Below, one piece after another: positions 34,121 to 63,734 of a stretch of DNA of 64,000 nt. Below the pieces are notes generated by a model. That model ran no database searches, was not told where the DNA came from, and saw only the letters and a program-made list of their open reading frames with translations. Each line of letters starts with the position of its first letter. The stretch's first letter is position 1. The position numbers and the translations under genes are program-made. The stretch comes from Gammaproteobacteria bacterium (GTDB lineage Bacteria; Pseudomonadota; Gammaproteobacteria; Steroidobacterales; Foliamicaceae). The stretch is taken from contig OZ243929.1 of NCBI GenBank assembly GCA_965213995.1, positions 1,439,236 to 1,503,235 of the forward strand, read 5' to 3'.

Positions 34121-34282
34121 CCGTTCCCCTTTTTTCCACATCCGAACAAGTCGATTTAATAAAGCGCGCCTTAGCCAGCCATATGCGGCTGCCGTTTTTT
34201 GCCGGAGCGATTCCCGGCGGCTGGATATGCTTGAAGCGATCCCGCCTGCCTACGGAGCGGCGGCGGCGTTTATGATGCGCGG

Positions 34283-35221: not shown

Positions 35222-35240
35222 TGGCGTCGCGCCTGCGCAC

Positions 35241-36143: not shown

Positions 36144-36144
36144 C

Positions 36145-37953: not shown

Positions 37954-37959
37954 GCCTGT

Positions 37960-38658
37960 ATGCCGCCCGGTGCCGTCGCCCGTGTGCCCGCCGATTCGCC
38001 AGACCGGCTGGGGGCCGGGCTTGCCGATCTCGGCATCAGCCCGAGCGGCGATGATCTGGCGCGGCTTGACGCTTTTATCGAAATGCTGATGCGTTGGAAC
38101 GCGGCCCACGGTCTCACGGCCCGCGCTTCGCGCCAGGAGCTGGCGACGCGGCACATACTGGACAGCGCTGCGGCGCTGCCGTTTCTGCCGCCGGGCCCGA
38201 TGCTGGACGCCGGTAGCGGCGGCGGCCTGCCCGGCGTGGTGCTGGCCCTGCTGCGCCCGGAGACGGATTGGGTGCTGCTCGATTCCTCGGCCCGCAAAAC
38301 GGCGTTCCTTGGCCATGCGAGGATGGAATTGGGCTTAAGCAACGTGCAGATTGTTCGCTCCCGGCTGGAGAACTACCAGCCGCAGGACGCGCCCGCGGCG
38401 GTGATCGCCCGTGCGCTGGCGCCGCTGCCGAAGCTGGTCGCGCTGGCCCGCCGCATGCTTGATCGGGGCTCTTGGCTGCTGGCCATGCTGGGCCGCCGTC
38501 CCCGCAACGAGGCGCTGGCTTCGCTTGACGGGGTGCATTGCCAGTCGCTGGAGCGGATTCGGGTGCCCGGGCTTGATGCGCAACGCCATATTGCCGTGCT
38601 TCGCCGCCGCGCGGCCGGCCAGGGCGCGGCCCGGAGGGCATGGCAGGCGCAGGCATGA
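37960..38658 (+). CDS. rsmG: 16S rRNA (guanine527-N7)-methyltransferase RsmG (GidB)
   Basis: LDAFIEMLMRWNAAHGLTA...RHILDSAAALPFL...MLDAGSGGGLPGVVLA. Its stop overlaps the parA start (ATGA). Confidence 0.85.
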   Translation: MPPGAVARVPADSPDRLGAGLADLGISPSGDDLARLDAFIEMLMRWNAAHGLTARASRQELATRHILDSAAALPFLPPGPMLDAGSGGGLPGVVLALLRPETDWVLLDSSARKTAFLGHARMELGLSNVQIVRSRLENYQPQDAPAAVIARALAPLPKLVALARRMLDRGSWLLAMLGRRPRNEALASLDGVHCQSLERIRVPGLDAQRHIAVLRRRAAGQGAARRAWQAQA

Positions 38659-39428
38659 AACGCACTTTCGCAGTGGCCAACCGCAAGGGGGGAGTGGGCA
38701 AGACCACAACCGCCATCAATCTCACAGCCTGCCTCGCGCAGATGGGCCGCAAGGCTCTGCTGGTTGACCTGGATCCCCAAGCCAACGCCACCACCGGCTG
38801 CGGAGTGGACAGGGATGCCGTGGGCCTGTCAACCTATGACCTGTTGATGGGAAAGGCCTCGGTCGCCGATATCCGGGTGGGAATCGATTCCGCCGGTTTC
38901 GATCTTCTGCCGGCAACCTCTGCCCTCACGGCTGCGGAAGTGGAGCTTCTGCAGCTGGGCAGCGGCCGCGAGCTGAGGCTGCGCGGCGCGCTGGCGGAAG
39001 TATCGTTCCACTACCAGGCCATCCTGTTCGATTGCCCTCCCAGCCTCAACATCCTTACCCTCAACGCTCTGGCGGCGGCCGAAGGCGTGCTTGTGCCCGT
39101 TCAATGCGAGTATTTCTCGCTGGAGGGTCTTTCATCGCTGGTGGGCGTTATCGAAGACCTCTGCGCGCACTCCAACCCGGACCTTGAGATAAGCGGCATA
39201 ATCCGCACCATGTACGACGGTCGAAACCGTCTGGCCCGCGATGTCTCCGCGCAACTGCGGAAACATTTTCCCGATGAGCTTTTCCGCACGATCATTCCGC
39301 GCAACGTGCGTCTGGCCGAAGCGCCCGGCTTCGGCGTGCCGGCCATCCAGCATGATCGCCTAGCCAGCGGCTCGCTGGCCTACGCCGCGCTGGCGGGCGA
39401 GCTGGTTCGCCGGGGGCTGGGCGAGTAA
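38655..39428 (+). CDS. parA: Chromosome partitioning ATPase ParA (Soj)
   Basis: Deviant Walker A VANRKGGVGKTTTAINL, with DLDPQANAT and ILFDCPPSL. Confidence 0.9.
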   Translation: MKRTFAVANRKGGVGKTTTAINLTACLAQMGRKALLVDLDPQANATTGCGVDRDAVGLSTYDLLMGKASVADIRVGIDSAGFDLLPATSALTAAEVELLQLGSGRELRLRGALAEVSFHYQAILFDCPPSLNILTLNALAAAEGVLVPVQCEYFSLEGLSSLVGVIEDLCAHSNPDLEISGIIRTMYDGRNRLARDVSAQLRKHFPDELFRTIIPRNVRLAEAPGFGVPAIQHDRLASGSLAYAALAGELVRRGLGE

Positions 39429-39435
39429 GCACCGC

Positions 39436-40311
39436 ATGGCTGCGCCCAACCGCGGACTCGGCAAGGGCCTGGACGCCCTGCTCGGACCACGCCAGGAGCG
39501 GGGGCGTCCGATCCTTGACGGCCCCTCGCCGCACGAACTGAAAGAACTGCCTTTGGATGTCTTGCAGCCGGGCCGCTTCCAGCCCCGGCAGATGATCGAT
39601 GCCAAAAGCGTGGCCGAACTGGCTGAATCGATTCGCGCCCAAGGTCTGGTCCAGCCGCTGCTTGCGCGTCCGCTGAACGCTGCGGGCAACGCCGGCGCGC
39701 GCTACGAAATCGTGGCCGGCGAACGTCGCTGGCGCGCCGCCCAGCAAGCGGGCTTCGACCGGATTCCCGTGATCGTCCGGCCGCTCGGCGACGAGGAAGC
39801 CGCTATGGCGGCGCTGGTTGAAAACGTGCAGCGCGAGAACTTGAGCGCCATCGAGCTTGCCGAAGCCTTGCGCCGCATCCTCGAAATTTCCGGCGGCACC
39901 CACAAGGATGCGGCGCAGTCCATCGGAATGTCGCGCGCCGCGGTGAGCAACTATCTGCGGCTTTTAGAGCTTGGCGACACGGCCAGAGCCCTGCTGGCGG
40001 AGCGCAAACTGGAAATGGGCCACGCGCGGGCGCTGCTGGCAGTGGGCAATCCGGCCCGCCAGGCCGCGCTGGCGCGCCGCATCGCCGAGCAAAGCTTAAG
40101 CGTGCGCCAAGCAGAGCGCCTCGCCCGGGCCGAGTCGAGCCCGGCGGCGGCCGCCAAGCCGCGCGATCCCAACGTGGCCCGCCTGGAACAGGATTTAAGC
40201 GAGCGCTGGGGCGCCCCTGTTCGCCTCCGGCACGGGAAGCGGGGCGGACGCTTGGAAATCCGCTACAAAAGCCTGGACGAACTCGACAGCCTGCTTGCCC
40301 GCCTCAAGTAG
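39436..40311 (+). CDS. parB: Chromosome partitioning protein ParB (Spo0J)
   Basis: GLGKGLDALL, LQPGRFQPRQ, YEIVAGERRWRAAQQAG, ALVENVQRENLSAIE and an HTH region. Confidence 0.9.
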   Translation: MAAPNRGLGKGLDALLGPRQERGRPILDGPSPHELKELPLDVLQPGRFQPRQMIDAKSVAELAESIRAQGLVQPLLARPLNAAGNAGARYEIVAGERRWRAAQQAGFDRIPVIVRPLGDEEAAMAALVENVQRENLSAIELAEALRRILEISGGTHKDAAQSIGMSRAAVSNYLRLLELGDTARALLAERKLEMGHARALLAVGNPARQAALARRIAEQSLSVRQAERLARAESSPAAAAKPRDPNVARLEQDLSERWGAPVRLRHGKRGGRLEIRYKSLDELDSLLARLK

Positions 40312-47866: not shown

Positions 47867-47966
47867 CTTTGTTCGTTCCCTGCTTCCGGGAGTGTCGGCG
47901 ACAGGAGTCGCCGCCAAGCCCCATGGATGGGTTTATGCGTCTCCCGGAAGCAGGGAACGAACAAAG
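47867..47966 (+). repeat. Family-1 intergenic palindromic element, copy e2
   Basis: Arms ctttgttcgttccctgcttccgggag / ctcccggaagcagggaacgaacaaag are perfect. Inner hairpin ggcgac-agga-gtcgcc is compensatory relative to ggcggc/gccgcc. Core aagccccatggatgggtttatgcgtctc. Confidence 0.85.
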
Positions 47967-50478: not shown

Positions 50479-52584
50479 TCAGGAGACGGAGGCGGAATCT
50501 TTAGCCTGGAGCTTTGGAAACAGCAGTGCCGCTCCCACCTGCAGGCTGTCGGGGTCAAGGCCGGGGTTGTACTGGCGCAGCAGCCACATGGGAATATCGT
50601 TGCGGCGCATGAGTTGCCATACGGAATCACCTCGGCGAACCTTGTATTCGGTGACGCCCACCACGTGGTAGTCGGAGAAAAACGCTTCCTGCAGCGCGTA
50701 ATGAAACGCCACCCGGCGCTCGGTGAAGGTTTGCGCGCTGACCCGGCTGAAGTCCAGCCGCAGCCGCTTGCCCACGCCCACCGGGCGTCCGAATCGCAGG
50801 CCGTTCAGATCCCGCAGCCGCTGGGTTCGGATTTCCAGCCAGTCCGCGTAATGCCCCAGCGTCTCGGCGGCCTGCACTTCGACCATGCCGCCGCTCATCA
50901 CCGAGTAGTCATTCGGGTCCACCAAGCTCACCACGCCGTACGACGGTCCGGTGGGCGCCGGCTCCACCGCAGCCTCGAGCGCCGGTCTGGCTTCCTCCCC
51001 GATCCCGTCGTTGGCCTCGCCGCCGCCGCCGATTTCAGCCGCCGCCATGAGCGATTGCGGCTCCGGCTCGGTGACGGGCGGCTCGGGAATAGGCAGATGG
51101 CCAGCCTTGAGCTTCAGTTCCTGTCCGATGTAAATCCGGTTCTTGTTGGGGATATCGTTCAGCGCCAGCAATTCAGCCTCGGACAAGCGGGCCCGTTGGG
51201 CGATGATGGCGATGGTGTCGCCCCGCCGCACGCGATAAGTGGCGGCGCCTTCTTCTATGGGCTGGGCGGCGGCGGGGGCCAGCCCGGGAATCTCCAGCGA
51301 TTGCCCCGCGCGGATGCGGTGCCTGTTTCGCAGGTTGTTGGTCTGCATGATTCTGGACACGGTGGTTCCGTAGCGCTGCGCGATCAGCGACAGCGTGTCT
51401 CCAGGCTGGATGATGTACTCGCGATCCCGAATCTGGCTGGCAAACCTGAGATCGTCCGCTATGCCCGCGATGAGCGCCTGCGCGTTATCGATGGGCGGCG
51501 CCCTCAAGGTGTAGTTCCGGGGCACGTAACGGGAGCTGCCCAGCACGTTTGCCCGAAAGCCGGGGTTGAGCTCCGCCAGGGTTCTTTCCGACACGCCCAA
51601 GGCATCGGCAAGCGTGTCCATTCGCAGATAGTCCGGCATGTCCAGCATCACGTAGCGAATGGGCGGATCCAGCGTGAGCGGCCCGAAGTAGCGTTCCGCG
51701 TCCTTCTCGATTTCCACCACCGCGATCAGTTCCACATAGAAGTTACGGCCCGCAAACTTGAAGGTTCGCCCCTTGTAGCGCCGCACAACCGTTTCGATAT
51801 CCCGTGTGCCCAACTGCCTTACGGCCCGCAGCATGGCGCCCACGCCCTGGTTGTAGGCGGTAATAGCGAGCGGCCAGCTGTCAAGAAGACTGTGGTTGTA
51901 GGCCAGCAACTGCGCCGCCGCCGTGGAAGCGCGCCAAGGGTCCAGCCGTTCGTCCATGACATTGTCGATGCGCATGAAACGGCGCCCGGTGGAACGCGTG
52001 AATTGCCACATTCCCAGCGCCGATGCCGAGGAGCGGGCCTTGGGGTTGAACGAGGATTCCACATGCGGCAGAGCCACCACGCCTTCAGGAACGCCATGCT
52101 CGCGCAGGGTTGCGAGGATATGCTCTCGCCAGCGCCCGGAGCGCACGAGGCCCTCCTTGAAGCGTTCCGCCATTCCCTGCTGCACGCGGATTCGTCCGGC
52201 CGCGGCCCTCAGGATGGCGCGCGAAGGATTGGGACCCCAAGCATCAAGCGCCCGCTGCTCAAGTTCGCTCAGCTTGGCCGGGCGATTGTCCGCCAAGCGG
52301 TTCAGGACATTGCGGTAGTCGCGCGCGGCCTTGCGGATGGCGTCGCGCCGTCCGCGGGGAGAAAGATTCTTCAATGAAACTTTCCCGTACACCACGCCGG
52401 CGTAAAGGTTGTCGTGAACCAAACCGGCCTCGCCGCCCACTTCGCCGAAAACCTGTTTCCAGAAATCAATCTCGGCGCGCATGCCTTCGGGAACCGGCAA
52501 GCCTCCGGTGTCGGCCGAGGCGGCGAAAGCGAGGGTGAGCGCGAGCGCCGGGAGCAGGGAGAGTGTTCTGGCGCAAGCCCGCAT
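50479..52584 (-). CDS. Lytic murein transglycosylase with three LysM domains (MltD-like)
   Basis: SLT core LPHVESSFNPKARSSASALGMWQF. LysM repeats YIIQPGDTLSLIAQRYG, YRVRRGDTIAIIAQRA and YKVRRGDSVWQLMRRN. Confidence 0.85.
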   Translation of the reverse strand: MRACARTLSLLPALALTLAFAASADTGGLPVPEGMRAEIDFWKQVFGEVGGEAGLVHDNLYAGVVYGKVSLKNLSPRGRRDAIRKAARDYRNVLNRLADNRPAKLSELEQRALDAWGPNPSRAILRAAAGRIRVQQGMAERFKEGLVRSGRWREHILATLREHGVPEGVVALPHVESSFNPKARSSASALGMWQFTRSTGRRFMRIDNVMDERLDPWRASTAAAQLLAYNHSLLDSWPLAITAYNQGVGAMLRAVRQLGTRDIETVVRRYKGRTFKFAGRNFYVELIAVVEIEKDAERYFGPLTLDPPIRYVMLDMPDYLRMDTLADALGVSERTLAELNPGFRANVLGSSRYVPRNYTLRAPPIDNAQALIAGIADDLRFASQIRDREYIIQPGDTLSLIAQRYGTTVSRIMQTNNLRNRHRIRAGQSLEIPGLAPAAAQPIEEGAATYRVRRGDTIAIIAQRARLSEAELLALNDIPNKNRIYIGQELKLKAGHLPIPEPPVTEPEPQSLMAAAEIGGGGEANDGIGEEARPALEAAVEPAPTGPSYGVVSLVDPNDYSVMSGGMVEVQAAETLGHYADWLEIRTQRLRDLNGLRFGRPVGVGKRLRLDFSRVSAQTFTERRVAFHYALQEAFFSDYHVVGVTEYKVRRGDSVWQLMRRNDIPMWLLRQYNPGLDPDSLQVGAALLFPKLQAKDSASVS

Positions 52585-52731
52585 AGTCGGGCTGCCTTTC
52601 TACACCAAAGCGGCGGGTTTCGCAATCCGCGCGCGGGTCTCAATCCTCCATGCGCCTTGCGCGATCAACCTTCCGATGGGCATCATTGCCGCTTAAGTTT
52701 CCAGCCGCGCCGCGAGGTGATTGGAGCCGCA

Positions 52732-53616
52732 GTGAACGAAAAGCCCGGCAAGGCGCAAGCAGCGCTCAAATCGCGCGCCCGCGCCTACGGGCGGCTGATC
52801 CGCTTGAACCGCCCAACAGGAACGCTGCTGCTTTTGTGGCCCACGCTGTTCGCAATATGGCTGGCCTCGGATGGCGTTCCGCCGGGCAATGTGCTGCTTG
52901 TTTTCGTTGCGGGCACCTTCCTCATGCGCTCGGCGGGCTGCGCGCTTAACGATTTTGCCGACCGCCGCGTGGATGCGCTCGTCAAGCGCACCCGCGACCG
53001 GCCGCTGGCAGCGGGTGAAATCCAGCCGGTCGAGGCCCTGGCGGTGGCTGCGGCCTTGACGGTGGCGGCCGCCTTGCTGGCGCTCACGCTGCCGCCTGTT
53101 GTGATCGGGCTTGCGGTGCTGGGCGCCGTCGCGGCCGCGTTCTATCCTTTCGCAAAACGCTTGGTCTCGGCGCCGCAGCTGGTGCTGGGCGTGGCGTTTT
53201 CCTGGGGCGTGCCCATGGCCTACGGGGCCTTGTCGGATTTCGGGGATATTTCCCTGTGGATGCTGTGGCCGCTGACCTACTTGTGGGTGGTTATTTACGA
53301 CACGCTGTATGCCATGGTCGATCGCGACGACGACTTGAAAATCGGCGTGCCGTCCACGGCTGTCCTTCTGGGCGGACGGGACATCGCTTTTATCGCGTGC
53401 GGCCTTGCCGCGTACTTGGCCGGGATGCTGGCATTAGGGCTTTTGCTGGGGCTCGGCGCGCTGTATTTCACCGGCTGGGCGGCGGCGGCGGCATGCGCGG
53501 GCTGGCAGGTCTGGCTGATTCGGGGCCGGGATCGAATGGGCTGTTTCCGGGCTTTCAACAACAATGCGCTGCTGGGCTTTTTCCTCTACGCCGGCTTGGC
53601 CATCGACATGCTCTAG
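52732..53616 (+). CDS. ubiA: 4-hydroxybenzoate polyprenyltransferase
   Basis: RLNRPTGTLLLLWPTLFAIW, NDFADRRVDALVKRTRDRPLAAGEI and YDTLYAMVDRDDDLKIG. The GTG at 52732 is preceded by GGAG. Confidence 0.85.
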   Translation: MNEKPGKAQAALKSRARAYGRLIRLNRPTGTLLLLWPTLFAIWLASDGVPPGNVLLVFVAGTFLMRSAGCALNDFADRRVDALVKRTRDRPLAAGEIQPVEALAVAAALTVAAALLALTLPPVVIGLAVLGAVAAAFYPFAKRLVSAPQLVLGVAFSWGVPMAYGALSDFGDISLWMLWPLTYLWVVIYDTLYAMVDRDDDLKIGVPSTAVLLGGRDIAFIACGLAAYLAGMLALGLLLGLGALYFTGWAAAAACAGWQVWLIRGRDRMGCFRAFNNNALLGFFLYAGLAIDML

Positions 53617-53667: not shown

Positions 53668-53775
53668 TCCCCTGCCCTTTCTCCGCCCCTTTCCCGCAGG
53701 AGACGCATGACTACTTGAAGCTTGACCTGCATAGGTCAAGAACCCGTCCATGGGGCTTGGCGGCGGACGGTCGCT
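53668..53775 (-). repeat. Family-1 element, copy f (degenerate, with nested insertion)
   Basis: The left arm and the core gagacgcatga|acccgtccatggggcttggcggcgg are present. The core is split by ctacttgaagcttgacctgcataggtcaag, which contains the hairpin cttgacct/aggtcaag. No matching right arm was found. Confidence 0.6.
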
Positions 53776-53862
53776 TCCGCCTCAAGTTATGATGGCAAGC
53801 CTTATGGCGGCGGCAAGACGGGCGGGAGCAGTGGCCGGGCTGGCATCGCCCGCCTGCGGGTA

Positions 53863-54726
53863 ATGCCCATGCCTGAAGCGGGGGCCATCGAAACGCCGTC
53901 GGGCAAGGGCGCGGCGGACGAGAATTTTCCCGTTGGCTCATGGTTGCTGCCGGCGCGATTGCGGCGGCATATCGCGGCGTTTTACGCCTACGCCCGGGCC
54001 ATTGACGATATTGCCGATAATCCGCAACTTGAGCCCTCGGAGAAAATCCGCCGTCTAGAGGGTTTCGCGCAGGCGGTGAGCGGAGCGAGAACGGACGACG
54101 CGGCCTACCGCACGGCGCACGATATCCGCCGCAGCCTTGCGGAAACCGGCGTTAGCCATCGGCACTGCGTGGATTTGACCCGCGCCTTCAAGCAGGACGC
54201 GGTCAAGCGGCGCTATGCCGATTGGGGCGAATTGATGGACTACTGCAACTTCTCCGCCGCGCCCGTAGGCCGCTACCTGATTGATTTGCACCGCGAGAGC
54301 GGCAGCGCCTACGAGCCCGCCGACGCGTTGTGCAACGCCTTGCAAGTCCTCAACCATTTGCAGGATTGCGTCGACGACTACCGCCTGCTCGACCGGGCAT
54401 ATCTGCCAGGCGACTGGATGCGCGAGGCCGGCGCAAACCTCGAAATGCTTCGCGAGCCTGCTGCCCCATGCGCCTTGCGTGAAGTTTTCAATCGCTGCCT
54501 GGATGCCACTGACGCCCTGCTGCTTTCGGCCAACCAGCTGGCCGGGCGCTTGCGCGGCGCGCGCTTCGCTATGGAGTCGGCGACGATAGTGGCCATTGCC
54601 TGGAAACTCAGCGCTGAATTGCGCCGCCGCGATCCGGTCGCGGAGCGGGTGGAATTGAGCAGGATGCAATTCGCCGGCTGCGTGATGCGCGGCATCGGTC
54701 GTGTATCGCTTGGCCGAAACGGCTAG
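53863..54726 (+). CDS. hpnC: Hydroxysqualene/squalene synthase HpnC
   Basis: SGKGAADENFPVGSWLLPARLRRHIAAFYAYARAIDDIADN is the HpnC-type N-terminus (ENFPV). A second Asp-rich region, LQDCVDD, follows. Confidence 0.8.
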   Translation: MPMPEAGAIETPSGKGAADENFPVGSWLLPARLRRHIAAFYAYARAIDDIADNPQLEPSEKIRRLEGFAQAVSGARTDDAAYRTAHDIRRSLAETGVSHRHCVDLTRAFKQDAVKRRYADWGELMDYCNFSAAPVGRYLIDLHRESGSAYEPADALCNALQVLNHLQDCVDDYRLLDRAYLPGDWMREAGANLEMLREPAAPCALREVFNRCLDATDALLLSANQLAGRLRGARFAMESATIVAIAWKLSAELRRRDPVAERVELSRMQFAGCVMRGIGRVSLGRNG

Positions 54727-54740
54727 AATAATGCTTCCGG

Positions 54741-55817
54741 TTGATTTTGGAGGTAGCCCTGTTGGGGAGAACGGCTCCTGTTTTCGTGACCGGTGCAGCG
54801 GGGCATGTCGGCGCCAATCTGGTTCGCCGACTGCTCCGAGATGGCGTGAAAGTGCGCGTTCTGCTCCGGCACCAAGACAACAATGAAGGGCTCGACGGCT
54901 TGGACGTGGAGCGCGTGTTCGGTGATATCCGCGACCTTGATGCCACGCGCAAGGCGGTGGAAGGCTGTCAAGGCGTGTACCATGTCGCGGCCAAGATATC
55001 GACCATCGAGGGCAATCACGCCCATCGGCGGGAAATATTCGATTGCAACGTTGTGGGCACCCGCAATATGCTTAAGGCCGTGCGGGAGGCCGATGCCGGC
55101 CGCATGGTGGTGACCGGCTCCTTCAGCGCCGTCGGCTATGATCTTGATAATCCCTCCTCCCCGGCCAACGAATCCATGCAGTTCTATCCCATGGAGCGCA
55201 CCATGCCTTACGAGCGCAGCAAGTCGCTGGTTGAGCATGAGTGCTGGCGCGCCGCGGCAGCTGGCCAGGATGTGGTGGTGGCGACCTGTTGCGCGGTGGT
55301 GGGCGCTGCGGATTTCTTTCCCTCGAGGCTGGGGAGCGCCTTGTGCGCCTTCAGCAACCGCAAGTTGCGGGCCTACGTGGATGGAGGCTTCGAGTTTGTT
55401 GCCGCCCGCGACATCGTGGAAGGTCATGTGCTGTGCATGGAGCGCGGGCGCTCGGGTGAAAAATACATTTTCAGCAGCGAGTACAAAACGATCTCCGAAA
55501 TTCTCGATCTGTTCGAGGAGGTTTCGGGTGCGCCGCGCCCAAACCGCCGGGTTCCGGTGGGCCTGATGCTGCCGTTCTCCGAGGTGGCGAGCTTTTATCT
55601 CAGTCGCTGCCATCCGGATTTTCCGCAGCGCTTTACGCCGGGCGCCATCCGCCTGCTGCGCAAGTGCTTGCACGCCGATACTGGCAAGGCCCAGCGGGAG
55701 CTGGGCTACCGGCCCACCAGCATCCGGGAAGCGGTGCATGAAGCCTATGCGTTCCATCATCAGCGCAATGCCATTACTCATCCGCTCGCCAAGGCGCCGA
55801 GGGAGGGTCCGGCGTGA
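54741..55817 (+). CDS. NAD-dependent epimerase/dehydratase family protein (HpnA-like / 3-beta-HSD-like SDR)
   Basis: VFVTGAAGHVGANLVRRLL Rossmann motif, with an extended-SDR catalytic YERSK (YxxxK). A TTG at 54762, preceded by GGAGG, may be the true start. Confidence 0.8.
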   Translation: MILEVALLGRTAPVFVTGAAGHVGANLVRRLLRDGVKVRVLLRHQDNNEGLDGLDVERVFGDIRDLDATRKAVEGCQGVYHVAAKISTIEGNHAHRREIFDCNVVGTRNMLKAVREADAGRMVVTGSFSAVGYDLDNPSSPANESMQFYPMERTMPYERSKSLVEHECWRAAAAGQDVVVATCCAVVGAADFFPSRLGSALCAFSNRKLRAYVDGGFEFVAARDIVEGHVLCMERGRSGEKYIFSSEYKTISEILDLFEEVSGAPRPNRRVPVGLMLPFSEVASFYLSRCHPDFPQRFTPGAIRLLRKCLHADTGKAQRELGYRPTSIREAVHEAYAFHHQRNAITHPLAKAPREGPA

Positions 55818-55876
55818 CAGGCGGAGAAGGAAATGACAGGCGCCTCAATGGCAGTTACTCCTAAGGAGGATTCGGC

Positions 55877-56986
55877 ATGAACCAGGCACAGGTAGAGGCA
55901 CAGGCAGCGCCGCCGCCCGGCTTTTACGAGGCCGGCAATTTGCGGCAGAAGTCCCGCGCCGCCGGCATGGACCCCGACTATTGGTACGCCGTGGAGGAAG
56001 TCCGGCGGATCAAGCCGGGGACTGTGGTCGAGGTGGTGTTCTGGAAACGCTCGATCGCGCTTTATCGCGCCAAGGACGGATCTTTTCATGCCATGGAGAA
56101 TCGCTGCGCGCACCGCCAGCTCAAACTGTCCTTGGGCGTGGTGGAGGGTTGCCGGCTGGTGTGCTCCTACCACGGCTGGAAATACGACCCGGACGGAAAA
56201 CTGGCCGATACCGATCATGAGCGGATGGGCAAATTGCCCAAGGTGCAAGTCAAAACCTATCCGGTGAAAGTGCGTTACGGCCTCGTATGGCTATTTCCAG
56301 GCGATCCGGACCGGGCCGAATCGCGCCCGATTCCGGATATTCCCGAACTTGAGGGGCGCGGTCGCTGGGCCTGCGTGCCTCTCACTTTTACTTGGACCGC
56401 TCATCACTCGATGGTGATCGATAATGTGAGCGATTTCTCGCATGCTTTTCTGCACCGCCGCTACCGTCCGTTTGTGGGCGCAAAGCTGACCCGTTGCGAA
56501 ACCGTAGGCGACGATGTGCATGTGTCCTACGACACGGAGATAGGCGCCGGCCGCATTTCCAGCCGGTTTGTGGACAAGGCTAGCGTCGACACCCAGTATA
56601 TCGAGCTTTGCTACCAGTACCCGTACCAGTGGTCCAATACCGACGATGCGATCAAGCACTGGCTTTTTGTGCTGCCGATTGATGAGCGGACCACCCGCGC
56701 GTTCTTCCTGTTCTATTTCAAATCGCTGAAAATCCCCGTGGTGCCGGTGCGGATTCCACGCTTCGCCATGACTGCGGTGCTGAAGCTATCCAACCGATGG
56801 CTGATCGGCCCCTTGCTGGGTCAGGACGGATTTGCGGTTGAGGCGGAGCAGGAAGGTTACGAGCGCCACTGGGATGCCCGCCCGCTTGAGTTCAATCCGG
56901 TGGTTAGAGCCTTTCAGAACGTGACGGTGCGCAAGTGGCAGGAGCACTTGGAGCGCGAGAAAGCCAACGGGGCCGCCAGTGCCTGA
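55877..56986 (+). CDS. Rieske [2Fe-2S] non-haem-iron oxygenase
   Basis: Rieske motif CAHRQLKLSLGVVEGCRLVCSYHGW (CxH...CxxH). Candidate mononuclear-iron motif NVSDFSHAFLH. A GGAGG RBS precedes the ATG. Confidence 0.85.
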   Translation: MNQAQVEAQAAPPPGFYEAGNLRQKSRAAGMDPDYWYAVEEVRRIKPGTVVEVVFWKRSIALYRAKDGSFHAMENRCAHRQLKLSLGVVEGCRLVCSYHGWKYDPDGKLADTDHERMGKLPKVQVKTYPVKVRYGLVWLFPGDPDRAESRPIPDIPELEGRGRWACVPLTFTWTAHHSMVIDNVSDFSHAFLHRRYRPFVGAKLTRCETVGDDVHVSYDTEIGAGRISSRFVDKASVDTQYIELCYQYPYQWSNTDDAIKHWLFVLPIDERTTRAFFLFYFKSLKIPVVPVRIPRFAMTAVLKLSNRWLIGPLLGQDGFAVEAEQEGYERHWDARPLEFNPVVRAFQNVTVRKWQEHLEREKANGAASA

Positions 56987-58073
56987 ATCCCAGTTCGCGG
57001 CACCCATTCTGTCGGGCGGCATGCTGATCGATGCCGCCGCGATGGCGGGCGTTTTTCTGGTTTGGCTGTTTGTCGGATCGATGTTTCTGCCCGGCGCCCG
57101 CGTTGCCGGGGAGGATGCGGAAGGGAACCCCGTGAGCTACCGGCTCAACGGCTTGGCGCTGTACCTGCTGACCGCGCTCGCGGCCGCCGCGGCCCATCTG
57201 GGCGGATGGTTCCCGCTGTCGGTGCTCTATAGCCATTTCTTCGCCCTGTTCGCAGTGGCGAATCTGTTCGCGTTTGCGCTTTCCGGATGGCTCTATTGGC
57301 GCGGCGCGCGCAAGCGCCGGCAGCCCGGATTTTGGCGGAACTTTTTCTACGGCACCGAGCTCAATCCTTCGCTGCTGGGCGTGGATCTTAAGATGTTCAG
57401 CTATCGCCCCTCGCTGATCGGGCTGGCGCTGCTCAATGCGTCCTTCGCCGTGGTGCAATACGAAACGCACGGTCGGATTACGCTGGCGATGGCGCTCTAT
57501 CAAGCGCTTGGTTTTATTTACGTGCTCAATTATTTTCAGTTCGAGCGCGGAATGCTGCGAACTTGGGATATCGTGAGCGAACGCTTCGGATGGATGCTGG
57601 TGTGGGGCGACTACGCGCTGGTGCCGTTTTTCTACTGCATTGCCGGTTGGTGGCTGGTGGATGCCGCCGGACCAGCCATGCATCCTGTTTTCGCCGCTGG
57701 CATCGCGCTGCTTTTCGGTGTCGGCTTCTGGATATTTCGCGGCGCCAACTCGCAGAAGGATCGCTTTAAGAATGATCCCGGGGCCATGATTTGGGGCAAG
57801 CCGGCGGAATCGCTTGACGGCCGGCTGCTTGTATCGGGATTTTGGGGCATCGGGCGGCATCTCAATTACACGGGGGAGATTTGCATCTACCTGGCGTTTG
57901 CCCTCACCACCGGGTTCTCTTCCTGGGTGCCCTATCTGCTGCCCGCTTGGATAGCGAGCCTTTTGTGGCATCGCTCGCGGCGGGATGAGCGCCGCTGTCG
58001 GGCCAAGTACGGCGAGCTGTGGGCGCGCTACCGGCAGCGGGTGCCCTGCTGCATGATTCCGTTTGTGTACTAG
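56979..58073 (+). CDS. ERG4/ERG24-family sterol reductase (Delta14/Delta7/Delta24-type)
   Basis: FFYGTELNP, WDIVSERFGWMLVWGDYALVPFFY, FRGANSQKDRFK, LLVSGFWGIGRHLNYTGE and LLWHRSRRDERRCRAKYGELWARYRQRVPCCMIPFVY are family hallmarks. The GTG overlaps the Rieske gene stop by 8 nt. Confidence 0.85.
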   Translation: MPESQFAAPILSGGMLIDAAAMAGVFLVWLFVGSMFLPGARVAGEDAEGNPVSYRLNGLALYLLTALAAAAAHLGGWFPLSVLYSHFFALFAVANLFAFALSGWLYWRGARKRRQPGFWRNFFYGTELNPSLLGVDLKMFSYRPSLIGLALLNASFAVVQYETHGRITLAMALYQALGFIYVLNYFQFERGMLRTWDIVSERFGWMLVWGDYALVPFFYCIAGWWLVDAAGPAMHPVFAAGIALLFGVGFWIFRGANSQKDRFKNDPGAMIWGKPAESLDGRLLVSGFWGIGRHLNYTGEICIYLAFALTTGFSSWVPYLLPAWIASLLWHRSRRDERRCRAKYGELWARYRQRVPCCMIPFVY

Positions 58074-58149
58074 GAGCTTGCGGCCGGCCCGTGGGGCGCG
58101 AAAACCGCTTCGCCGCGACACGGCGCCGTTGGCAGTCCCGCCTGTTTAG

Positions 58150-61100
58150 ATGAAACAATCCTCAAGTATGCCGTCCTATGACATAGCCGTCGTGGGCGCC
58201 GGACCGGTAGGCAGCGTATGCGCCCTGGCCCACGCCCGCAAAGGTGCCCGGGTGGCTTTGCTGGAAGCCAATCCGCGCGCCGTGCGGCGTTTGGCCGGCG
58301 AGTGGCTGCATCCGCCCGGGGCGCGCGCGCTGCGCAATCTGGGGGTTGATCTTGATACGCAGCTGCCCAGTTGCGCGGGCAGAGGGTTTGTGGTGTTCCC
58401 GGACGATGGCGGAGAGTCCATTGTCTTCAATTATCCCGACGAAGCGCCCGGTCTGGTGTGTGAGCACGAGACGCTGGTTGGACGGCTGCGCGAGACCATC
58501 GAGCGCGAGCCGGGAATCGACTATCTGGCGCAAGCGAGGGTGCGCGAGGTGGGGGGCCGGCAGCTCGGCTACACGTTCGATGGCTCGAATCAGCGCCTGA
58601 CCGCCGGCAGAATTGTGGGAGCCGACGGTCGGATGTCGGTGGTGCGCAAATCGCTGGGCCTGTCCGCCGAGCTGATGACCAGCTCGCGGATGCTGGGCCT
58701 GGTTCTCAACGATGTGCATTTGCCGCTGGAGGGCTATGGACACCTGCTGCTGGGCGGTCCGGGCCCGATCCTCATCTACCGGGTGGCCGAGGAGCGCATC
58801 CGCCTCATTGTGGATATCCCGCTGGACCACTGGGCGCCGGGAGATCCGGTCGGCTTGCTGTTGGACGCCTATGCTCCGCTTGTGCCCGAGGAGGTTCGCG
58901 CCGCCTTTGTGCAGGCGTTGCGCTCAGGCAGGTTCAGAGCCGCGGCCAGCAGCTTGCGGCCGCGCGTCACCTACGGCAGCCCGGACCGGGTGCTGATCGG
59001 CGATGCCGCTGGACATTACCATCCGATGACAGCGATGGGGATGACCCTGGGCTTCGGCGATGCGATTGCGCTGGCCGAAAGCGCAAACTTCGAGGAGTTC
59101 TCGAACCGCCGTTTTTTGGATACGCGCGCGCCCGAGCTGCTTGCCATGGGCCTCTACGAGGTCTTCGCCGATCATCGCGACGAGGCCACGATGCTGCGCC
59201 ACGCGGTGTACCGGAACTGGCGGGCGAATGATGCCTTCCGCGAGCGAACCGTGGGCTTGTTGGCCTGCGAGGACACATCCCTTTCCAGCCTGACCTTGGC
59301 GTTCGGTGCCACGGTGCTGCGGTCGGTGGCGGGCGAGATTCCGCTTTCCTATAAAGCCAGCGTATGGCGGCGGCCTCTTGATTTGGTTCAGCGGCTTGCC
59401 GTGCGGCTCGGATGGGCGCTGGTTGGCGTGCGGGACTTGCAGAAGGCCAAGAGCGCAAACGGAAGCATGCAACCGCAGCCAAGCCATCCGCTGGCGCATG
59501 CGTTTTTAGTGTCGATGCCGGCGCGATCCGGCGCGGCGAAGTCCGTTCAATCAAAAGAGCCTGCTCCGCCCGATCCTGAAACCGCCGTTCGGCGGGCCGC
59601 AAAACGGCTAGTGGGTTTGCAGCGCGATGACGGCGCCTGGGAGGGCGAGATGGTGTGGTGCCCCATGCTCACCGCGCAATATGTGCTGCTCCATCATATC
59701 CTCGGGCGGCCGCTGGGCGATGCCCGGCGCCGCAGCGTTCTGCGCCAATTTGAGCGCAGCCGCTTTGCCCAAGGCCAATGGGGCATGCACGACCATTCGC
59801 CGCCCAATCTGTTTGTGACCACCCTGGTTTATGTTGCAGCGAGACTGCTGGGGGTTGAGCGCGACGATCCCTTGATAGAGCCGGCGCGCGCCTTCATGCA
59901 AACCGAAGGCGTTGCAAGCATTCCCAGCTGGGGGAAATTCTGGCTTGCGCTTTTGGGCCTGTACGGCTGGCGCGGGGTCAATCCCGTGCTTCCCGAACTC
60001 TGGCTGCTGCCGCGCTGGTTTCCTTTGCATCCGTCCAACTGGTACTGCCATACCCGCCTGATCTACATGGCCATGGCCGCGATCTACGCGCGGCGGTTCG
60101 TAGCGCCAGCCACGCCATTGATCGCCTCGTTGCGGGAGGAGCTGTATCCGCAGGGGTTCTCAAGCGTCAATTTCTCTGCGGCGCGCAACCTGCTTCGCCA
60201 AGGCGATCTGTTTGCCCGCCCGAGCGTTTGGCTCAGGGCCGGCTACGCCATGGCGCGCCTCTACGACCGCCTCCATATCCGTCGCCTGCGTGCCCGCTGC
60301 GTGAAATCGATCATTCCCCGGATCCGCTGGGAGCTGAACAGTTCAAGCCACACGAATATTTCCCCGGTGAGCGGAATTCTGAATATCCTCGCGTTATGGC
60401 TGCGCGACCCCAACGATTCCGATGGCCTCAAGGCGCTTGAAAAGCTGGAGGACTGGATATGGGATGACGAAGAGCACGGCGCGCGCGTGACCGGCGCCCG
60501 AAGCGCTTCCTGGGACACCGGCTTTGCGCTGCAGGCGCTGTCGGCCGCCGCCAAGGTCGAGGACACCGGGAGCGCCATGCAAAACGCTGCGGACTTCCTT
60601 GCGGCGCAACAGATCAATGTGAGCTTCGAAGGATTTCGCGAAGCCTTCCGGGCGGACCCGAAGGGCGGCTGGTGCTTTGCCGGCGGCTGGCATGGTTGGC
60701 CGGTATCCGACTGCACCGCCGAAGCGGTGCTGGGGCTTGTCGCCGCGCGCGGCGATGCGGCGGACCGCGCCGCGATCGCCAATGCCGTCGCCTTCATGCT
60801 GCGCAGCCAGAACCGCGACGGCGGTTTCGGCAGTTACGAGGCGCGCCGCTCCAGGGTTCCTCTGGAGTGGCTGAATCCTGCGGAGATGTTTGGCGAGTCG
60901 ATGACCGAGCATTCATTTGTGGAATGCACAGCATCCTGCCTCGCGGCGCTGGCCGCGGCGGGCAGGCATTTCCCGGACCTTGCCGACGACTCTGTTTCGG
61001 CAGCCGTGTCGCGGGCGGATGCGTGGCTCAGGCGCACCCAGGCCAGCGACGGGTCGTGGCGCGGAGTGTGGGGCGTGCAATTTGTTTACGGCACGTTTTT

Positions 61101-61512
61101 CGGGGTGCGGGGCCTGCTGGCTGCTGGTTGCAGCCGGACCGATCCGGCTCTGCGCCTAGCCTGCCGGTGGCTGCTGGACCGCCAGCGGGAGGATGGCGGA
61201 TGGGGCGAACACCACAGCGGCTGCTTGCCCGGCACTTACGTGGAGCATGAGGAAAGCCAGGTCATCCAAACCGCTTGGGCATTGATCGCGCTTTTAGAGG
61301 CGGGCGATTCCAACTGGGCGGCGCTTTCGCGCGGCGCCCAGTTCCTGCTGAGAACGCAGCAAGAGGATGGCGGATGGCCCAAGCAGGATATGGCGGGGGT
61401 GTTTTTCCGAACCGCGCTTCTGGACTACGTGCTCTACCGGCAGTATTTCCCTTTGCATGCGCTGGCGCTGTTCGAGCGCCGTCAGGCGCGCTTGGATACG
61501 GCAAGGTCGTGA
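58150..61512 (+). CDS. Fusion protein: squalene monooxygenase (epoxidase)-like FAD domain plus oxidosqualene cyclase
   Basis: N-terminal domain: YDIAVVGAGPVGS, GEWLHPPG (compare the SQMO motif GELLQPGG) and GDAAGHYHPMTAMGMT (compare GDAxNMRHPLTGGGMT). C-terminal domain: multiple QW repeats (QRDDGAWEGE, QNRDGGFGSYE, QASDGSWRGVWG, RQREDGGWGEH, QQEDGGWP) and the catalytic GGWHGWPVSDCTAEAV. One uninterrupted 1120-aa ORF. Confidence 0.85.
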   Translation: MKQSSSMPSYDIAVVGAGPVGSVCALAHARKGARVALLEANPRAVRRLAGEWLHPPGARALRNLGVDLDTQLPSCAGRGFVVFPDDGGESIVFNYPDEAPGLVCEHETLVGRLRETIEREPGIDYLAQARVREVGGRQLGYTFDGSNQRLTAGRIVGADGRMSVVRKSLGLSAELMTSSRMLGLVLNDVHLPLEGYGHLLLGGPGPILIYRVAEERIRLIVDIPLDHWAPGDPVGLLLDAYAPLVPEEVRAAFVQALRSGRFRAAASSLRPRVTYGSPDRVLIGDAAGHYHPMTAMGMTLGFGDAIALAESANFEEFSNRRFLDTRAPELLAMGLYEVFADHRDEATMLRHAVYRNWRANDAFRERTVGLLACEDTSLSSLTLAFGATVLRSVAGEIPLSYKASVWRRPLDLVQRLAVRLGWALVGVRDLQKAKSANGSMQPQPSHPLAHAFLVSMPARSGAAKSVQSKEPAPPDPETAVRRAAKRLVGLQRDDGAWEGEMVWCPMLTAQYVLLHHILGRPLGDARRRSVLRQFERSRFAQGQWGMHDHSPPNLFVTTLVYVAARLLGVERDDPLIEPARAFMQTEGVASIPSWGKFWLALLGLYGWRGVNPVLPELWLLPRWFPLHPSNWYCHTRLIYMAMAAIYARRFVAPATPLIASLREELYPQGFSSVNFSAARNLLRQGDLFARPSVWLRAGYAMARLYDRLHIRRLRARCVKSIIPRIRWELNSSSHTNISPVSGILNILALWLRDPNDSDGLKALEKLEDWIWDDEEHGARVTGARSASWDTGFALQALSAAAKVEDTGSAMQNAADFLAAQQINVSFEGFREAFRADPKGGWCFAGGWHGWPVSDCTAEAVLGLVAARGDAADRAAIANAVAFMLRSQNRDGGFGSYEARRSRVPLEWLNPAEMFGESMTEHSFVECTASCLAALAAAGRHFPDLADDSVSAAVSRADAWLRRTQASDGSWRGVWGVQFVYGTFFGVRGLLAAGCSRTDPALRLACRWLLDRQREDGGWGEHHSGCLPGTYVEHEESQVIQTAWALIALLEAGDSNWAALSRGAQFLLRTQQEDGGWPKQDMAGVFFRTALLDYVLYRQYFPLHALALFERRQARLDTARS

Positions 61513-61525
61513 GGGGCGCCCGAGA

Positions 61526-62269
61526 ATGATCCGCACACGGGCCCGGACAACTGCTGACCACACCCACGCCGCCGCTAGTCAGGGGGAAGGCGTTGCGGTG
61601 CCGGCGGGCGTGCTCCTGACGCTGATACTGGCCGTTTTGGCTTTGCCCGGCCTTGCGGCGCGCTATTGGGCCGACGGCCATCTGAGCTTGGTTTATTCCG
61701 TCCTCTGCGTGTTCTTTGCCGTTAACTTTCTTATCTGCTGGTGGGAAATTTGCCTCTACTTCCGCCGCGACTATATCGAAAAGCGCGCCCGCTACTGGCG
61801 GCAGCACCGAAAGGAAACTGGCCGCTCGCCGGTGCTGGATTTTGTTCTTTCCCGGGTGCCGCTCAAGCGAGCGTTTTCGCTCACTGTTTGGGCCAACGTT
61901 TGGGCCACCTACGCCGAATATGACGGCTCGTACGCGGACCGCCGCAGCTACGGGTTCAACGTCGATGTCGCCAACGGCTTCGCAACGCCGCTGCCCACAT
62001 TGGCGCTCTATGCGGCCTACGCCTTCGAGTTCATTCCGGCCCTTGCCGCAGGCATTCTTGGGGCCATGCTGTTTTGGCAATTCCTCTACATGACCTCCGC
62101 GTATCTTCTGAGCTTTGCGGTAGCGAAGCGCTATGAGCGCCTCAGCGGCCGGGAAATTTGCATCTATATTCTGGCAATGAATTCGGTATGGATACTGTGT
62201 CCGATTTTGGGCCTCTTCGTATCGATCGACCTGATCGTGAGCGGCAGCTACAGCGCCTTGGGATACTGA
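61526..62269 (+). CDS. Polytopic membrane protein, EBP/EXPERA-like (candidate sterol Delta8-Delta7 isomerase)
   Basis: About 4-5 TM segments. A by-eye match to the emopamil-binding-protein pattern: FAVNFLICWWEICLYF (EBP: FIHLVIEGWFVLYY), VWATYAEYDGSYADRRSY (EBP: LWKEYAKGDSRY) and ILAMNSVWILCPILG (EBP: VFMNALWLVLPGVL). Confidence 0.5.
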   Translation: MIRTRARTTADHTHAAASQGEGVAVPAGVLLTLILAVLALPGLAARYWADGHLSLVYSVLCVFFAVNFLICWWEICLYFRRDYIEKRARYWRQHRKETGRSPVLDFVLSRVPLKRAFSLTVWANVWATYAEYDGSYADRRSYGFNVDVANGFATPLPTLALYAAYAFEFIPALAAGILGAMLFWQFLYMTSAYLLSFAVAKRYERLSGREICIYILAMNSVWILCPILGLFVSIDLIVSGSYSALGY

Positions 62270-62316: not shown

Positions 62317-62420
62317 CCCGGTTCTCGGCCCCGCCTCGTGGGAGTGTCGGCGGCAGGAGCCGCCGCCAAGCCCCATGGATGGGTTTATGCGTCTCCCACG
62401 AGGCGGGGCCGAGAACCGGG
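62317..62420 (+). repeat. Family-1 intergenic palindromic element, copy g
   Basis: Arms cccggttctcggccccgcctcgtgggag / ctcccacgaggcggggccgagaaccggg are perfect. Inner hairpin ggcggc-agga-gccgcc, core aagccccatggatgggtttatgcgtctc. It lies between convergent genes. Confidence 0.85.
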
Positions 62421-62447: not shown

Positions 62448-63734
62448 CTATGCCAGCGGTCGGCGGGTGGGCTGGGCCGTCTGGCGGACGATGGCTTGGG
62501 CGGCGATTTCTCCGGACCGAACTGCCGATTCGATGGTGGCAGGCAAGCCGGTGGCGGTCCAGTCACCGGCTAGGAACACATTGGCGAACGCGCTTGCGGC
62601 GCCGGGGCGCAGACGCGCTTGTTCCGGTGTTTGAACAAACGTGGCCCGCTTTTCTTTCACCACGCGGTACGGCGGAAGGCTCGCCGGATTGTCGGCCAGC
62701 GCGGCAGCGACATCGCGCCAAGTTCGCTCAGCCAGCACCGCGGCTGATTCATGCACCAGATCAGCTGCGGCGCTAATGGTGACGGAGGCCACATCGCCGC
62801 GAACAAAAAGCCATTGCGCCGTGCCTCCGATCAGTCCGATAAACGGGAGCTGTGCGGGAATATCGGCTGGTTGGGACAAACGAAAATGCACATTCACGAT
62901 GGGGCTGCTTTGCAGCGGCGCCGCGAGTCCGGGCAGCAAGCCCGCCGCGGCCTGCGGCGGAACGGCTAGCACCACCCTGTCGTCCGCGCCGAGCCGCACG
63001 CGGCGCTCGCCGAAACACAGCGCCTCCGCCCGTCCATTCGACCGCTCGATTTGAGTGAGCCGCCGCTTAAATTGCAGCTCCGCTCCTTGTGCCCGCAGCC
63101 AAGCGAGCGCCGGGTCCACAAACGCGTCGGACAGCCCCCGCGCGGCGATCAGCGGACGGCAAGCGGCCTCGCCTTTGGCGAAGGTCTCGCGCAACACCGG
63201 CCGCAGCAATTGCGCGGCGCCCTCGGTGGCCGGCATGTTCAGCGCCGCCACGGCAAGCGGTTCCCAGAAACGCTCAAATAAAACGCCGCGGCTGCCCACG
63301 CAGTCCGCGACTGTCCGGCTGGGTCCGGCGAGCATCAATGCGAGCGCCGAAAGATGGCTCCATGCCGAGGAGTCGGGCGTTCTTCTGCCGGGATGAAAAA
63401 TCCACCAGGGCACGATGCCCGAGTTGGGGCGCAGCATCCATCGCCGCCCGCCGCCCACATCGAAAAAGGGAAAGCAGGCTCTTTCCGGGCCGACCAGCGC
63501 GTTGGCGGCGGCGCCGACCAGCGAGAGGTAGCGGGCAGTCGATTGGTTGCCGCTCAGCAACAGATGATTGCCGTTATCAATGCTGCATCCGAGCCGGGCA
63601 TCGGCAAAGGAGCGGCAGCGCCCGCCGGCCCGCCCGCTTGCCTCATGCAGCACTACCGCATGCTTTTTCGCGAGCAGGGAAACGGCCGTGGAAAGCCCCG
63701 CCAGCCCGGCGCCTATGACGTGCGTTCGGGGCAA
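62448..63734 (-). CDS. hpnE: Squalene-associated FAD-dependent desaturase HpnE
   Basis: HVIGAGLAGLSTAVSL...VLHEASGRAGGRCRSF dinucleotide fold, an amine-oxidase-like body and the C-terminal FLAGDWTATGLPATIESAVRSG. It lies downstream of hpnD. Confidence 0.85.
   Translation of the reverse strand: MPRTHVIGAGLAGLSTAVSLLAKKHAVVLHEASGRAGGRCRSFADARLGCSIDNGNHLLLSGNQSTARYLSLVGAAANALVGPERACFPFFDVGGGRRWMLRPNSGIVPWWIFHPGRRTPDSSAWSHLSALALMLAGPSRTVADCVGSRGVLFERFWEPLAVAALNMPATEGAAQLLRPVLRETFAKGEAACRPLIAARGLSDAFVDPALAWLRAQGAELQFKRRLTQIERSNGRAEALCFGERRVRLGADDRVVLAVPPQAAAGLLPGLAAPLQSSPIVNVHFRLSQPADIPAQLPFIGLIGGTAQWLFVRGDVASVTISAAADLVHESAAVLAERTWRDVAAALADNPASLPPYRVVKEKRATFVQTPEQARLRPGAASAFANVFLAGDWTATGLPATIESAVRSGEIAAQAIVRQTAQPTRRPLA

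Follow-up and report, generated by a model that had tools for sequence, protein, structure and literature searches.

An SDR-Rieske gene pair of predicted SdmAB type in the sterol operon of an uncultured gammaproteobacterium

The genes reported here are an adjacent pair coding for an extended short-chain dehydrogenase/reductase (SDR) and a Rieske-type oxygenase, found in a 64-kb stretch of contig OZ243929.1 (hereafter the window) and predicted to form a C-4 sterol demethylation system of the bacterial SdmAB type. The operon that holds the pair is one for de novo sterol synthesis, and its source is an uncultured gammaproteobacterium most closely related to metagenome-assembled genomes (MAGs) of sponge symbionts. 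The pair is embedded in a tight run of genes on the + strand of the window, which reads: a UbiA prenyltransferase, an HpnC-type squalene synthase, the SDR, the Rieske oxygenase, an ERG4/ERG24-family sterol reductase, a fusion of squalene epoxidase (SE) and oxidosqualene cyclase (OSC), and a membrane protein that we term memX. A preliminary description of the sequence had put an SDR gene directly followed by a Rieske gene inside the sterol operon: both open reading frames (ORFs) are present as described and the placement is correct, with the HpnC-type gene upstream and the ERG4/ERG24 gene and the SE-OSC fusion downstream.

Gene structure and sequence features of the pair

The SDR is encoded on the + strand by an ORF spanning 54741-55817. 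The TTG that opens this ORF at 54741 reads TTT in the two closest relatives, the gammaproteobacterial MAGs L001 and L002, and L001 additionally has a 1-nt indel there; a second TTG at 54762, with a GGAGG 8 nt upstream, is conserved in all three genomes compared. Since the first codon is not conserved while the second is conserved together with its GGAGG, the gene most likely starts at 54762 and occupies 54762-55817 (351 aa); residues are nevertheless numbered here from TTG 54741. The protein matches the Pfam families Epimerase and 3Beta_HSD (the latter with 66 bits) and its motifs are all intact: T17-G-A-A-G-H-V-G24, which corresponds to TGxxGxxG, S127 and Y157-E-R-S-K161. The GAAGHVG and YERSK signatures previously noted in this protein are thus found at G18-G24 and Y157-K161. 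Within the set of 79-81 sponge-symbiont homologues T17, G18, G21, G24 and Y157 are invariant and K161 is kept in 80 of 81, and S127 is conserved across a 43-sequence reference set. An arginine (Arg43) after beta-2 suggests NADP(H) as the cofactor.

The Rieske [2Fe-2S]/mononuclear non-haem-iron oxygenase follows at 55877-56986 on the + strand, its ATG preceded by AAGGAGG, and is matched by the Pfam families Rieske and VanA_C. It has a [2Fe-2S] motif C77-A-H79 ... C96-S-Y-H99 and a mononuclear iron site made up of D186-F-S-H189-A-F-L-H193 and D317, so that the CxH...CxxH and DFSHAFLH motifs of the preliminary description are located at C77-H99 and D186-H193 respectively. The D186-H193 segment and D317 align with ENVCDFNHEYLH and LLGED of bona fide SdmA. 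The residues C77, H79, C96, H99, D186, H189, H193 and D317 are invariant in 81 homologues; H189, H193 and probably D317 are the predicted iron ligands, with D186 as the predicted bridging residue. An AlphaFold2 model of this protein, built on a shallow alignment of 44 sequences, had a pLDDT of 56.4 and was too poor for a fold search.

Both genes are real functional genes under purifying selection rather than chance ORFs, as is evident from their codon-position GC content (GC3 0.74 versus GC2 0.43-0.46) and from the ratio of nonsynonymous to synonymous substitution rates (dN/dS) against the orthologues in L001, L002 and L003, which is 0.07-0.15 for the SDR and 0.075-0.10 for the Rieske gene. 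Their catalytic and ligand residues are invariant or at least 98% conserved across the 79-81 homologues.

Relationships and conservation of the pair

Reference SDRs were collected by an exhaustive representative search with the window SDR and then assigned by the NCBIfam cut-offs. Above cut-off are the SdmB proteins P0295 (671 bits) and P0291 (683 bits), and the HpnA protein P0376 (513 bits); for SdmA the proteins from L081 (697 bits), L082 (712 bits) and L083 (713 bits) exceed it. The contig L081 displays the published methanotroph operon order (bstABC-sdmA-sdmB) as MMPL, Phosphonate-bd, TAtT, Rieske and SDR. The window Rieske protein finds the NCBIfam SdmA model (NF052579) with 421.3 bits over model positions 5-348 of 351, the next family scoring 37 bits; it is 44% identical to methanotroph SdmA over 350 aa (E 2e-114, 326 bits; BLASTP), with a range of 44-48% over the full length, and 57-63% identical to the Rieske proteins of sterol clusters from Gemmataceae, Hormoscilla, Methylocaldum and Nannocystaceae. 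The best NCBIfam match of the SDR is SdmB (293.4 bits), followed by HpnA (TIGR03466; 236.5 bits), both below the respective cut-offs. It is 42% identical to the bona fide SdmB P0295 (332 aa, E 5e-85; BLASTP), 41-42% to methanotroph SdmB and 41-49% to SdmB and SdmB-like proteins, versus 35% to the bona fide HpnA P0376 (E 8e-58) and 33-35% to HpnA overall.

These values can be set beside those of enzymes with demonstrated activity: SdmA and SdmB of Enhygromyxa salina are 45% and 41% identical to the Methylococcus capsulatus proteins, and those of Calothrix sp. NIES-4105 are 44% and 45% identical (Lee et al. 2023 Suppl. Table 2, PMC10202945). The window-to-methanotroph identities of 44% for the Rieske protein and 42% for the SDR match those of the experimentally validated SdmAB of E. 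salina and Calothrix, that is, the same divergence from the methanotroph enzymes (44-45% and 41-45%). This link to the two organisms draws on the published identities together with relatives of the same family or the same phylum (L085, L088, L089).

We placed the SDR with a bootstrapped neighbour-joining tree (computed in numpy; 43 sequences, 328 columns, 500 replicates), whose sampling comprised the reference set without the E. salina and Calothrix sequences. The sponge-symbiont SDRs form a clade with 100% bootstrap, and the window SDR joins those of Gemmataceae, Hormoscilla, Methylocaldum and Nannocystaceae in a clade, here called clade A, with 89%; an HpnA clade is recovered with 98% and leaves the window SDR outside. 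As to the affinity to SdmA/SdmB-like clades on which the preliminary description had made its proposal depend, the SDR falls in clade A beside SdmA-like Rieske genes and apart from HpnA, and the union of clade A with the methanotroph SdmB-like proteins is found in only 42-56% of replicates. Outside sponges, clade-A SDR genes invariably sit in sterol clusters that include an SdmA-like Rieske gene: in Methylocaldum the order is SDR, Rieske; in Gemmataceae SE, SDR, P450, Rieske, OSC ... ERG24; in Hormoscilla squalene synthase, ERG24, SE, OSC, ERG2 ... SDR, P450, Rieske; and in Nannocystaceae ERG24, P450, SDR, Rieske. Cyanobacterial (Hormoscilla), planctomycete and Nannocystaceae cluster proteins accordingly share with the window both clade A and the above Rieske identity.

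Certain features of individual clade-A members were seen in passing. On a contig assigned to the methanotroph Methylocaldum sp. (L087:2301-4535), a clade-A SDR gene precedes an SdmA-like Rieske gene, which is also the window order and departs from the canonical methanotroph one; both sdm subtypes, the clade-A SDR-Rieske type and the canonical sdmA-sdmB type, may therefore occur in Methylococcaceae. The catalytic Tyr-x3-Lys is lost in the clade-A SDRs P0136 (L089:8001-9068, from a Nannocystaceae MAG), P0134 and P0153; P0136 adjoins a Rieske gene in a Nannocystaceae sterol cluster and reads AAAITL where others have PYxxxK. The loss in the Nannocystaceae protein might be related to the need of E. 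salina SdmB for a further protein, SdmC. Because the window SDR keeps Ser127, Tyr157 and Lys161, while some clade-A proteins have lost the Tyr and Lys, it is expected to be catalytically competent, like the SdmB of M. capsulatus and Calothrix or the SdmC of E. salina. Natural fusions that include an SDR of this clade also turned up in the representative search (P0122, P0123, P0126, P0127, P0128, P0146, P0152): polyprenyl synthase with squalene synthase and SDR; HMG-CoA reductase with SDR; HMG-CoA reductase with squalene synthase and SDR; squalene synthase with SDR; and SDR with P450, some of which are possibly merges introduced by gene calling.

The conservation of the pair was assessed by a scan of one genome per species, which recovered 360 relatives of the Rieske protein; the locus counts given here refer to the best 80 of these 360. 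Almost all of the best 80 are from sponge MAGs, with 72-95% identity, and as annotated they span Gammaproteobacteria, Alphaproteobacteria, Nitrospirales, Binatia, Opitutales, Thermodesulfobacteriota, Palauibacter, Poriferihabitaceae and Porisulfidus. An SDR orthologue (73-97% identity) is found at every one of the 80 loci, and at 77 of them it immediately precedes the Rieske gene. An ERG24 homologue is present in 77 loci, in nearly all cases directly downstream of the Rieske gene, and contiguous SE and OSC matches, as in the fused epoxidase-cyclase, are found in 78. Pairwise distances of the SDR and Rieske proteins correlate (r = 0.67). Within this cluster, which sponge symbionts of many phyla have in common, no unit is more tightly linked than the SDR-Rieske pair.

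Predicted role in C-4 demethylation and its alternatives

We consider the SDR-Rieske pair to be, very probably, a bacterial SdmAB-type C-4 sterol demethylation system, an activity predicted here from sequence. The Rieske protein is the predicted C-4 methylsterol monooxygenase, and the SDR the predicted 3beta-hydroxysteroid-4-carboxylate 3-dehydrogenase (decarboxylating)/3-ketosteroid reductase. The SdmA/SdmB identity that had been proposed for the pair gains support from the best NCBIfam matches of both proteins, their 44% and 42% identity to the references, the clade-A placement and the conserved pairing, and also from the intact metal ligands and SDR catalytic residues, the low dN/dS, the fusions seen in the SDR clade and the published Aplysina aerophoba precedent described below; the proposed likeness to Methylococcus in domain composition likewise holds, with a Rieske oxygenase and an extended SDR side by side. 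The M. capsulatus Bath genes MCA1016/MCA1017 share this arrangement and the same metal-binding and catalytic motifs. They differ in that the window gene order is reversed, with the SDR first, the adjoining bstABC transporter genes are lacking in the window, the window scores are below the equivalog cut-offs, and the window SDR belongs to a different subclade.

A mechanism carried over from the characterised Methylococcus, Enhygromyxa and Calothrix enzymes, with substrate, chemistry and cofactor likewise inferred, would run as follows: the fused epoxidase-cyclase would convert squalene to a 4,4-dimethyl tetracyclic sterol; the SdmA-like Rieske protein would pass electrons from its [2Fe-2S] cluster to the mononuclear iron and, with O2, would oxidise a C-4 methyl group to the alcohol, the aldehyde and the carboxylate in three O2-dependent steps; the SdmB-like SDR would then oxidise the 3beta-hydroxyl to a ketone, driving loss of the C-4 carboxylate as CO2, and would subsequently reduce the 3-ketone back to the alcohol. 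The electrons for the Rieske protein would probably come from a housekeeping reductase, because a Pfam scan, which covered 33 window genes and left aside some 15 in the first 26 kb, found no dedicated ferredoxin or reductase gene nearby. This result fits the characterised SdmA proteins, which work in E. coli without a co-expressed redox partner. In Methylococcus, demethylation is confined to the 4beta-methyl (Lee et al. 2018 PNAS, as cited in PMC10202945, PMC6385002 and PMC10070321); it is this methyl rather than the 4alpha one that the characterised methanotroph system attacks (PMC6385002). The window pair would remove either one C-4 methyl, as in Methylococcus, or both, as in Calothrix.

The same overall logic is seen in the eukaryotic ERG25, ERG26 and ERG27 enzymes: conversion of the methyl to a carboxylate, 3-dehydrogenation with decarboxylation, and 3-ketoreduction; the 3Beta_HSD/extended-SDR fold of ERG26 is common to the window SDR. 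However, the window oxidase is a Rieske protein and not a membrane di-iron enzyme of the fatty-acid-hydroxylase type like ERG25, and a single SDR is thought to carry out the two steps divided between ERG26 and ERG27.

Several observations weigh against the SdmAB assignment. Both proteins fall short of the NCBIfam equivalog cut-offs of 600 bits: the SDR for SdmB (NF052578), where bona fide SdmB proteins reach 671-683 bits, and the Rieske protein for SdmA, where the methanotroph proteins reach 697-713 bits. Unrelated members of the SDR superfamily attain 218-265 bits on the SdmB model; because of this the score of the SDR is by itself weak evidence and does not place the protein, and we rejected it as proof of SdmB identity. 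In the tree, the grouping of clade A with the methanotroph SdmB-like proteins is recovered in about half of the replicates as given above, its alternatives receiving 3-7%. SdmA and SdmB of E. salina do not demethylate by themselves and need the third protein SdmC (PMC10202945), from which it follows that a two-gene pair is not automatically sufficient. Finally, CYP51, the usual companion of the pair, is absent from the window cluster and from the 64-kb window as a whole, which makes the substrate in the source organism uncertain. With regard to the first of these points, the NCBIfam cut-offs for SdmA and SdmB delimit the methanotroph orthologues, to which the models are tuned.

The alternative that fares best retains a role for the pair in C-4 demethylation and posits that a second, SdmC-like SDR encoded elsewhere is needed for the decarboxylation, the ketoreduction or the second methyl group. 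It finds a precedent in E. salina, where SdmA and SdmB yield only a 4-methylaldehyde and SdmC is required, and is in keeping with the window SDR being about equally distant from two Nannocystaceae SDR representatives (43-48% identity) and with a published sponge-symbiont orthologue that is no closer to E. salina SdmB than to SdmC (51-52% for both). Yet SdmC is reported as restricted to Nannocystaceae, a single SDR of this family was found in the window, this SDR keeps S127, Y157 and K161 where some clade-A members, including one from Nannocystaceae, have no Tyr/Lys, and SdmAB of Calothrix alone removes both C-4 methyls; we accordingly regard a requirement for a second SDR as improbable.

A further proposal, that the Rieske protein is a sterol ring hydroxylase or desaturase like KshA or Neverland/DAF-36 rather than a C-4 methyl oxidase, we judge to be highly improbable. 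A Rieske oxygenase in a sterol context would suit it, as would a weak similarity to KshA, with 35-39 bits in the PDB and 16.6 bits for Pfam KshA_C (PF19298), a domain that Neverland carries. This Pfam score, however, is below the gathering score of 23.3 and far below the 50.9 bits of VanA_C, and the bona fide SdmA has the same pattern of VanA_C over KshA_C. Measured in bits, the match to SdmA (326 by BLASTP, 421 by the hidden Markov model) is about 10-fold that to KshA; the best PDB chain scores 73 bits against 25-39 bits for KshA chains, which are outranked by the non-steroid Rieske oxygenases 7qwt, SxtT/SxtDIOX, DdmC and NdmA, and also by carbazole dioxygenase. Of the ALTERNATIVES (the KshA-like, Neverland/DAF-36 and HpnA readings), the KshA identity was rejected by the Pfam and PDB scores.

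The remaining proposal makes the SDR a hopanoid-associated sugar epimerase of the HpnA type, adjacent merely through travelling with hpnC and hpnE, and has a next to negligible probability: HpnA is indeed its second-best NCBIfam match and HpnC- and HpnE-like genes do bracket the cluster, but the identity is rejected by score (236.5 bits against a cut-off of 367.65), by sequence identity (lower to HpnA than to SdmB and SdmB-like proteins, as above) and by the tree (the HpnA clade excludes it, and clade A joins HpnA in 3% of replicates), 77 loci lacking hpnC/hpnE still have the SDR joined to the Rieske gene, and among the window genes covered by the Pfam scan neither a squalene-hopene cyclase nor any other hopanoid gene turned up.

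Flanking genes, the missing CYP51 and implications

The gene run begins with the UbiA prenyltransferase (52414-53616, + strand), followed by the HpnC-type squalene synthase (53722-54726, + strand), which is recognised by Pfam SQS_PSY and by NCBIfam HpnC with 256.6 bits, above the cut-off of 250.45, and has a probable start near 53860. The latter is the first gene of the block in common with the closest relatives. The DNA of the window cluster is 93.5% and 92% identical to L001 and L002 respectively, and this homology begins abruptly at 53759, just upstream of hpnC; the window flank upstream of that point (UbiA, a LysM transglycosylase and HtpG) is unrelated to the flanks in L001 and L002, and the sterol block hence lies in a different genomic neighbourhood in these close relatives. 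Downstream of the pair, the ERG4/ERG24-family sterol reductase (56979-58073, + strand; Pfam ERG4_ERG24 246 bits) starts with an 8-nt overlap with the Rieske stop codon, and the fused squalene epoxidase (N-terminal) and oxidosqualene cyclase (C-terminal) of 1120 aa (58150-61512, + strand) combines the Pfam domains SE, FAD_binding_3, SQHop_cyclase_N and SQHop_cyclase_C, with an NCBIfam 2,3-oxidosqualene cyclase score of 761 bits, below the cut-off of 851. A scan of 52-64 kb gave 0 promoter-like sites, and terminator-like sites at the number expected from shuffled sequence.

Convergent with the operon is a flavin amine-oxidase-family protein (62448-63734, - strand; Pfam Amino_oxidase 121.8 bits) that resembles HpnE, of the hydroxysqualene dehydroxylase type; we infer this assignment from the Amino_oxidase family and the pairing with HpnC. 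Its counterparts, 91-95% identical, were found in L001 and L002 only among the 80 related loci, and the HpnC-type squalene synthase is likewise confined to the clusters of the window, L001 and L002; this lineage is thus the only one in which HpnC-type and HpnE-like genes bracket the sterol genes. Neither the window nor the 10-kb flanks of L001 and L002 yielded an HpnD paralogue.

Directly after the cyclase is memX (61526-62269, + strand), which codes for a conserved multi-helix membrane protein of about 247 aa. Homologues 45-91% identical occur in 39 of the 80 loci, in most cases only a few kb away from the cluster, and share the motif W-A-x-Y-x-x-Y-D-x-S-Y-x-D-R-R with invariant W126, Y129, D133, S135 and D138. 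It belongs to no Pfam family and a 32-sequence profile found no sequence match in the PDB; the idea that it is an EBP-like sterol isomerase, raised by a W..E / D..RY-like pattern, is unsupported by Pfam and by the PDB profile search. A single-sequence AlphaFold2 model (pLDDT 57.5) was too poor for a fold search.

Two further features of the window were recorded. A dispersed short palindromic repeat of a REP/MITE-like kind, with the core ...CGGGAGTGTCGGCGGCAGGAGCCGCCGCCAAGCCCCATGGATGGGTTCATGCGTCTCCCG..., occurs at 7871-7997, 8221-8342, 19445-19525, 47888-47945 and 62341-62415, and in the relatives at L001:16421-16546, L002:1246-1336 and L002:16482-16548; one copy sits between memX and the HpnE-like gene, where L002 has an extra insertion of about 1.8 kb. 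The region 26819-40311 is the neighbourhood of the chromosomal origin, with rnpA, yidC, mnmG (gidA), rsmG (gidB), parA and parB; it is interrupted by an oligopeptide ABC transporter operon, and the sterol operon lies about 13 kb from parB.

Clusters of this type, their sdmA/sdmB homologues and the epoxidase-cyclase fusion are all already published. Kelly et al. (2022; PMC9531527) described an ERG24-CYP51-LSS core shared by Ircinia symbionts from ten phyla, for which they proposed horizontal transfer; their guess was that the unannotated neighbours of the core include SdmA/SdmB. Clusters with sdmB, sdmA, ERG24 and then a fused squalene monooxygenase (SMO)/OSC occur across many symbiont phyla, at 70-85% protein identity. 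Brown et al. (2023; PMC10070321, Fig. 3) already report the type in sponge symbionts, with sdmA and sdmB homologues, and mention ‘fused SMO/OSC homologs’ in their Methods. Their Suppl. Data 1 includes a contig from an Aplysina aerophoba metagenome with the same gene set and order in consecutive genes 12-16: gene 12 is matched by both ERG1 and ERG7 (i.e. the fusion), gene 13 is CYP51, gene 14 ERG24, gene 15 sdmA (47% identical to MCA1016) and gene 16 sdmB (45% identical to MCA1017, 52% to Calothrix sdmB and 51-52% to both sdmB and sdmC of E. salina). The clusters of the window, L001 and L002 differ from these in having no CYP51; the window further differs by the HpnC-type gene upstream and by memX and the HpnE-like gene downstream, and no sterol methyltransferase was seen in it. 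From E. salina it differs by the third protein required there, and from Calothrix by the position of CYP51, which there lies between the SDR and Rieske genes (by locus-tag order, as also in Hormoscilla), whereas in the window the two genes adjoin each other and the cluster has no CYP51.

A CYP51-type P450 is encoded between ERG24 and SE-OSC in 77 of the 80 loci (compare L003:12083-13582); it is absent at this position in the window, L001 and L002, and no P450 remnant was found in the 76-nt spacer between ERG24 and the fusion (58074-58149) or anywhere in the 64-kb window. ERG24 is nonetheless still constrained (dN/dS 0.14-0.16), and a CYP51 may be encoded at another place in the genome. Should the genome truly lack one, the end product would be unusual, namely C-4-demethylated sterols that retain the 14alpha-methyl group; alternatively, the bacteria would finish sterol intermediates obtained from the sponge host or from neighbouring symbionts. 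That the lineage of the window and the two closest MAGs has indeed lost CYP51 while keeping SdmAB and ERG24, with one or the other of these consequences, seems to us rather unlikely, if a little less so than the need for a second SDR. Were it true, in either case a two-protein sponge-symbiont SdmAB would feed 4-desmethyl or 4-methyl sterols into the sponge sterol and sterane biomarker pool.

As an instance of a known cluster type, the window is one more well-preserved example and opens no new question. Its significance is that of the family: SdmAB is a bacterial solution to C-4 demethylation that evolved independently of the eukaryotic one, and bacterial sterol synthesis bears on the reading of sterane fossils as biomarkers of eukaryotes or sponges.

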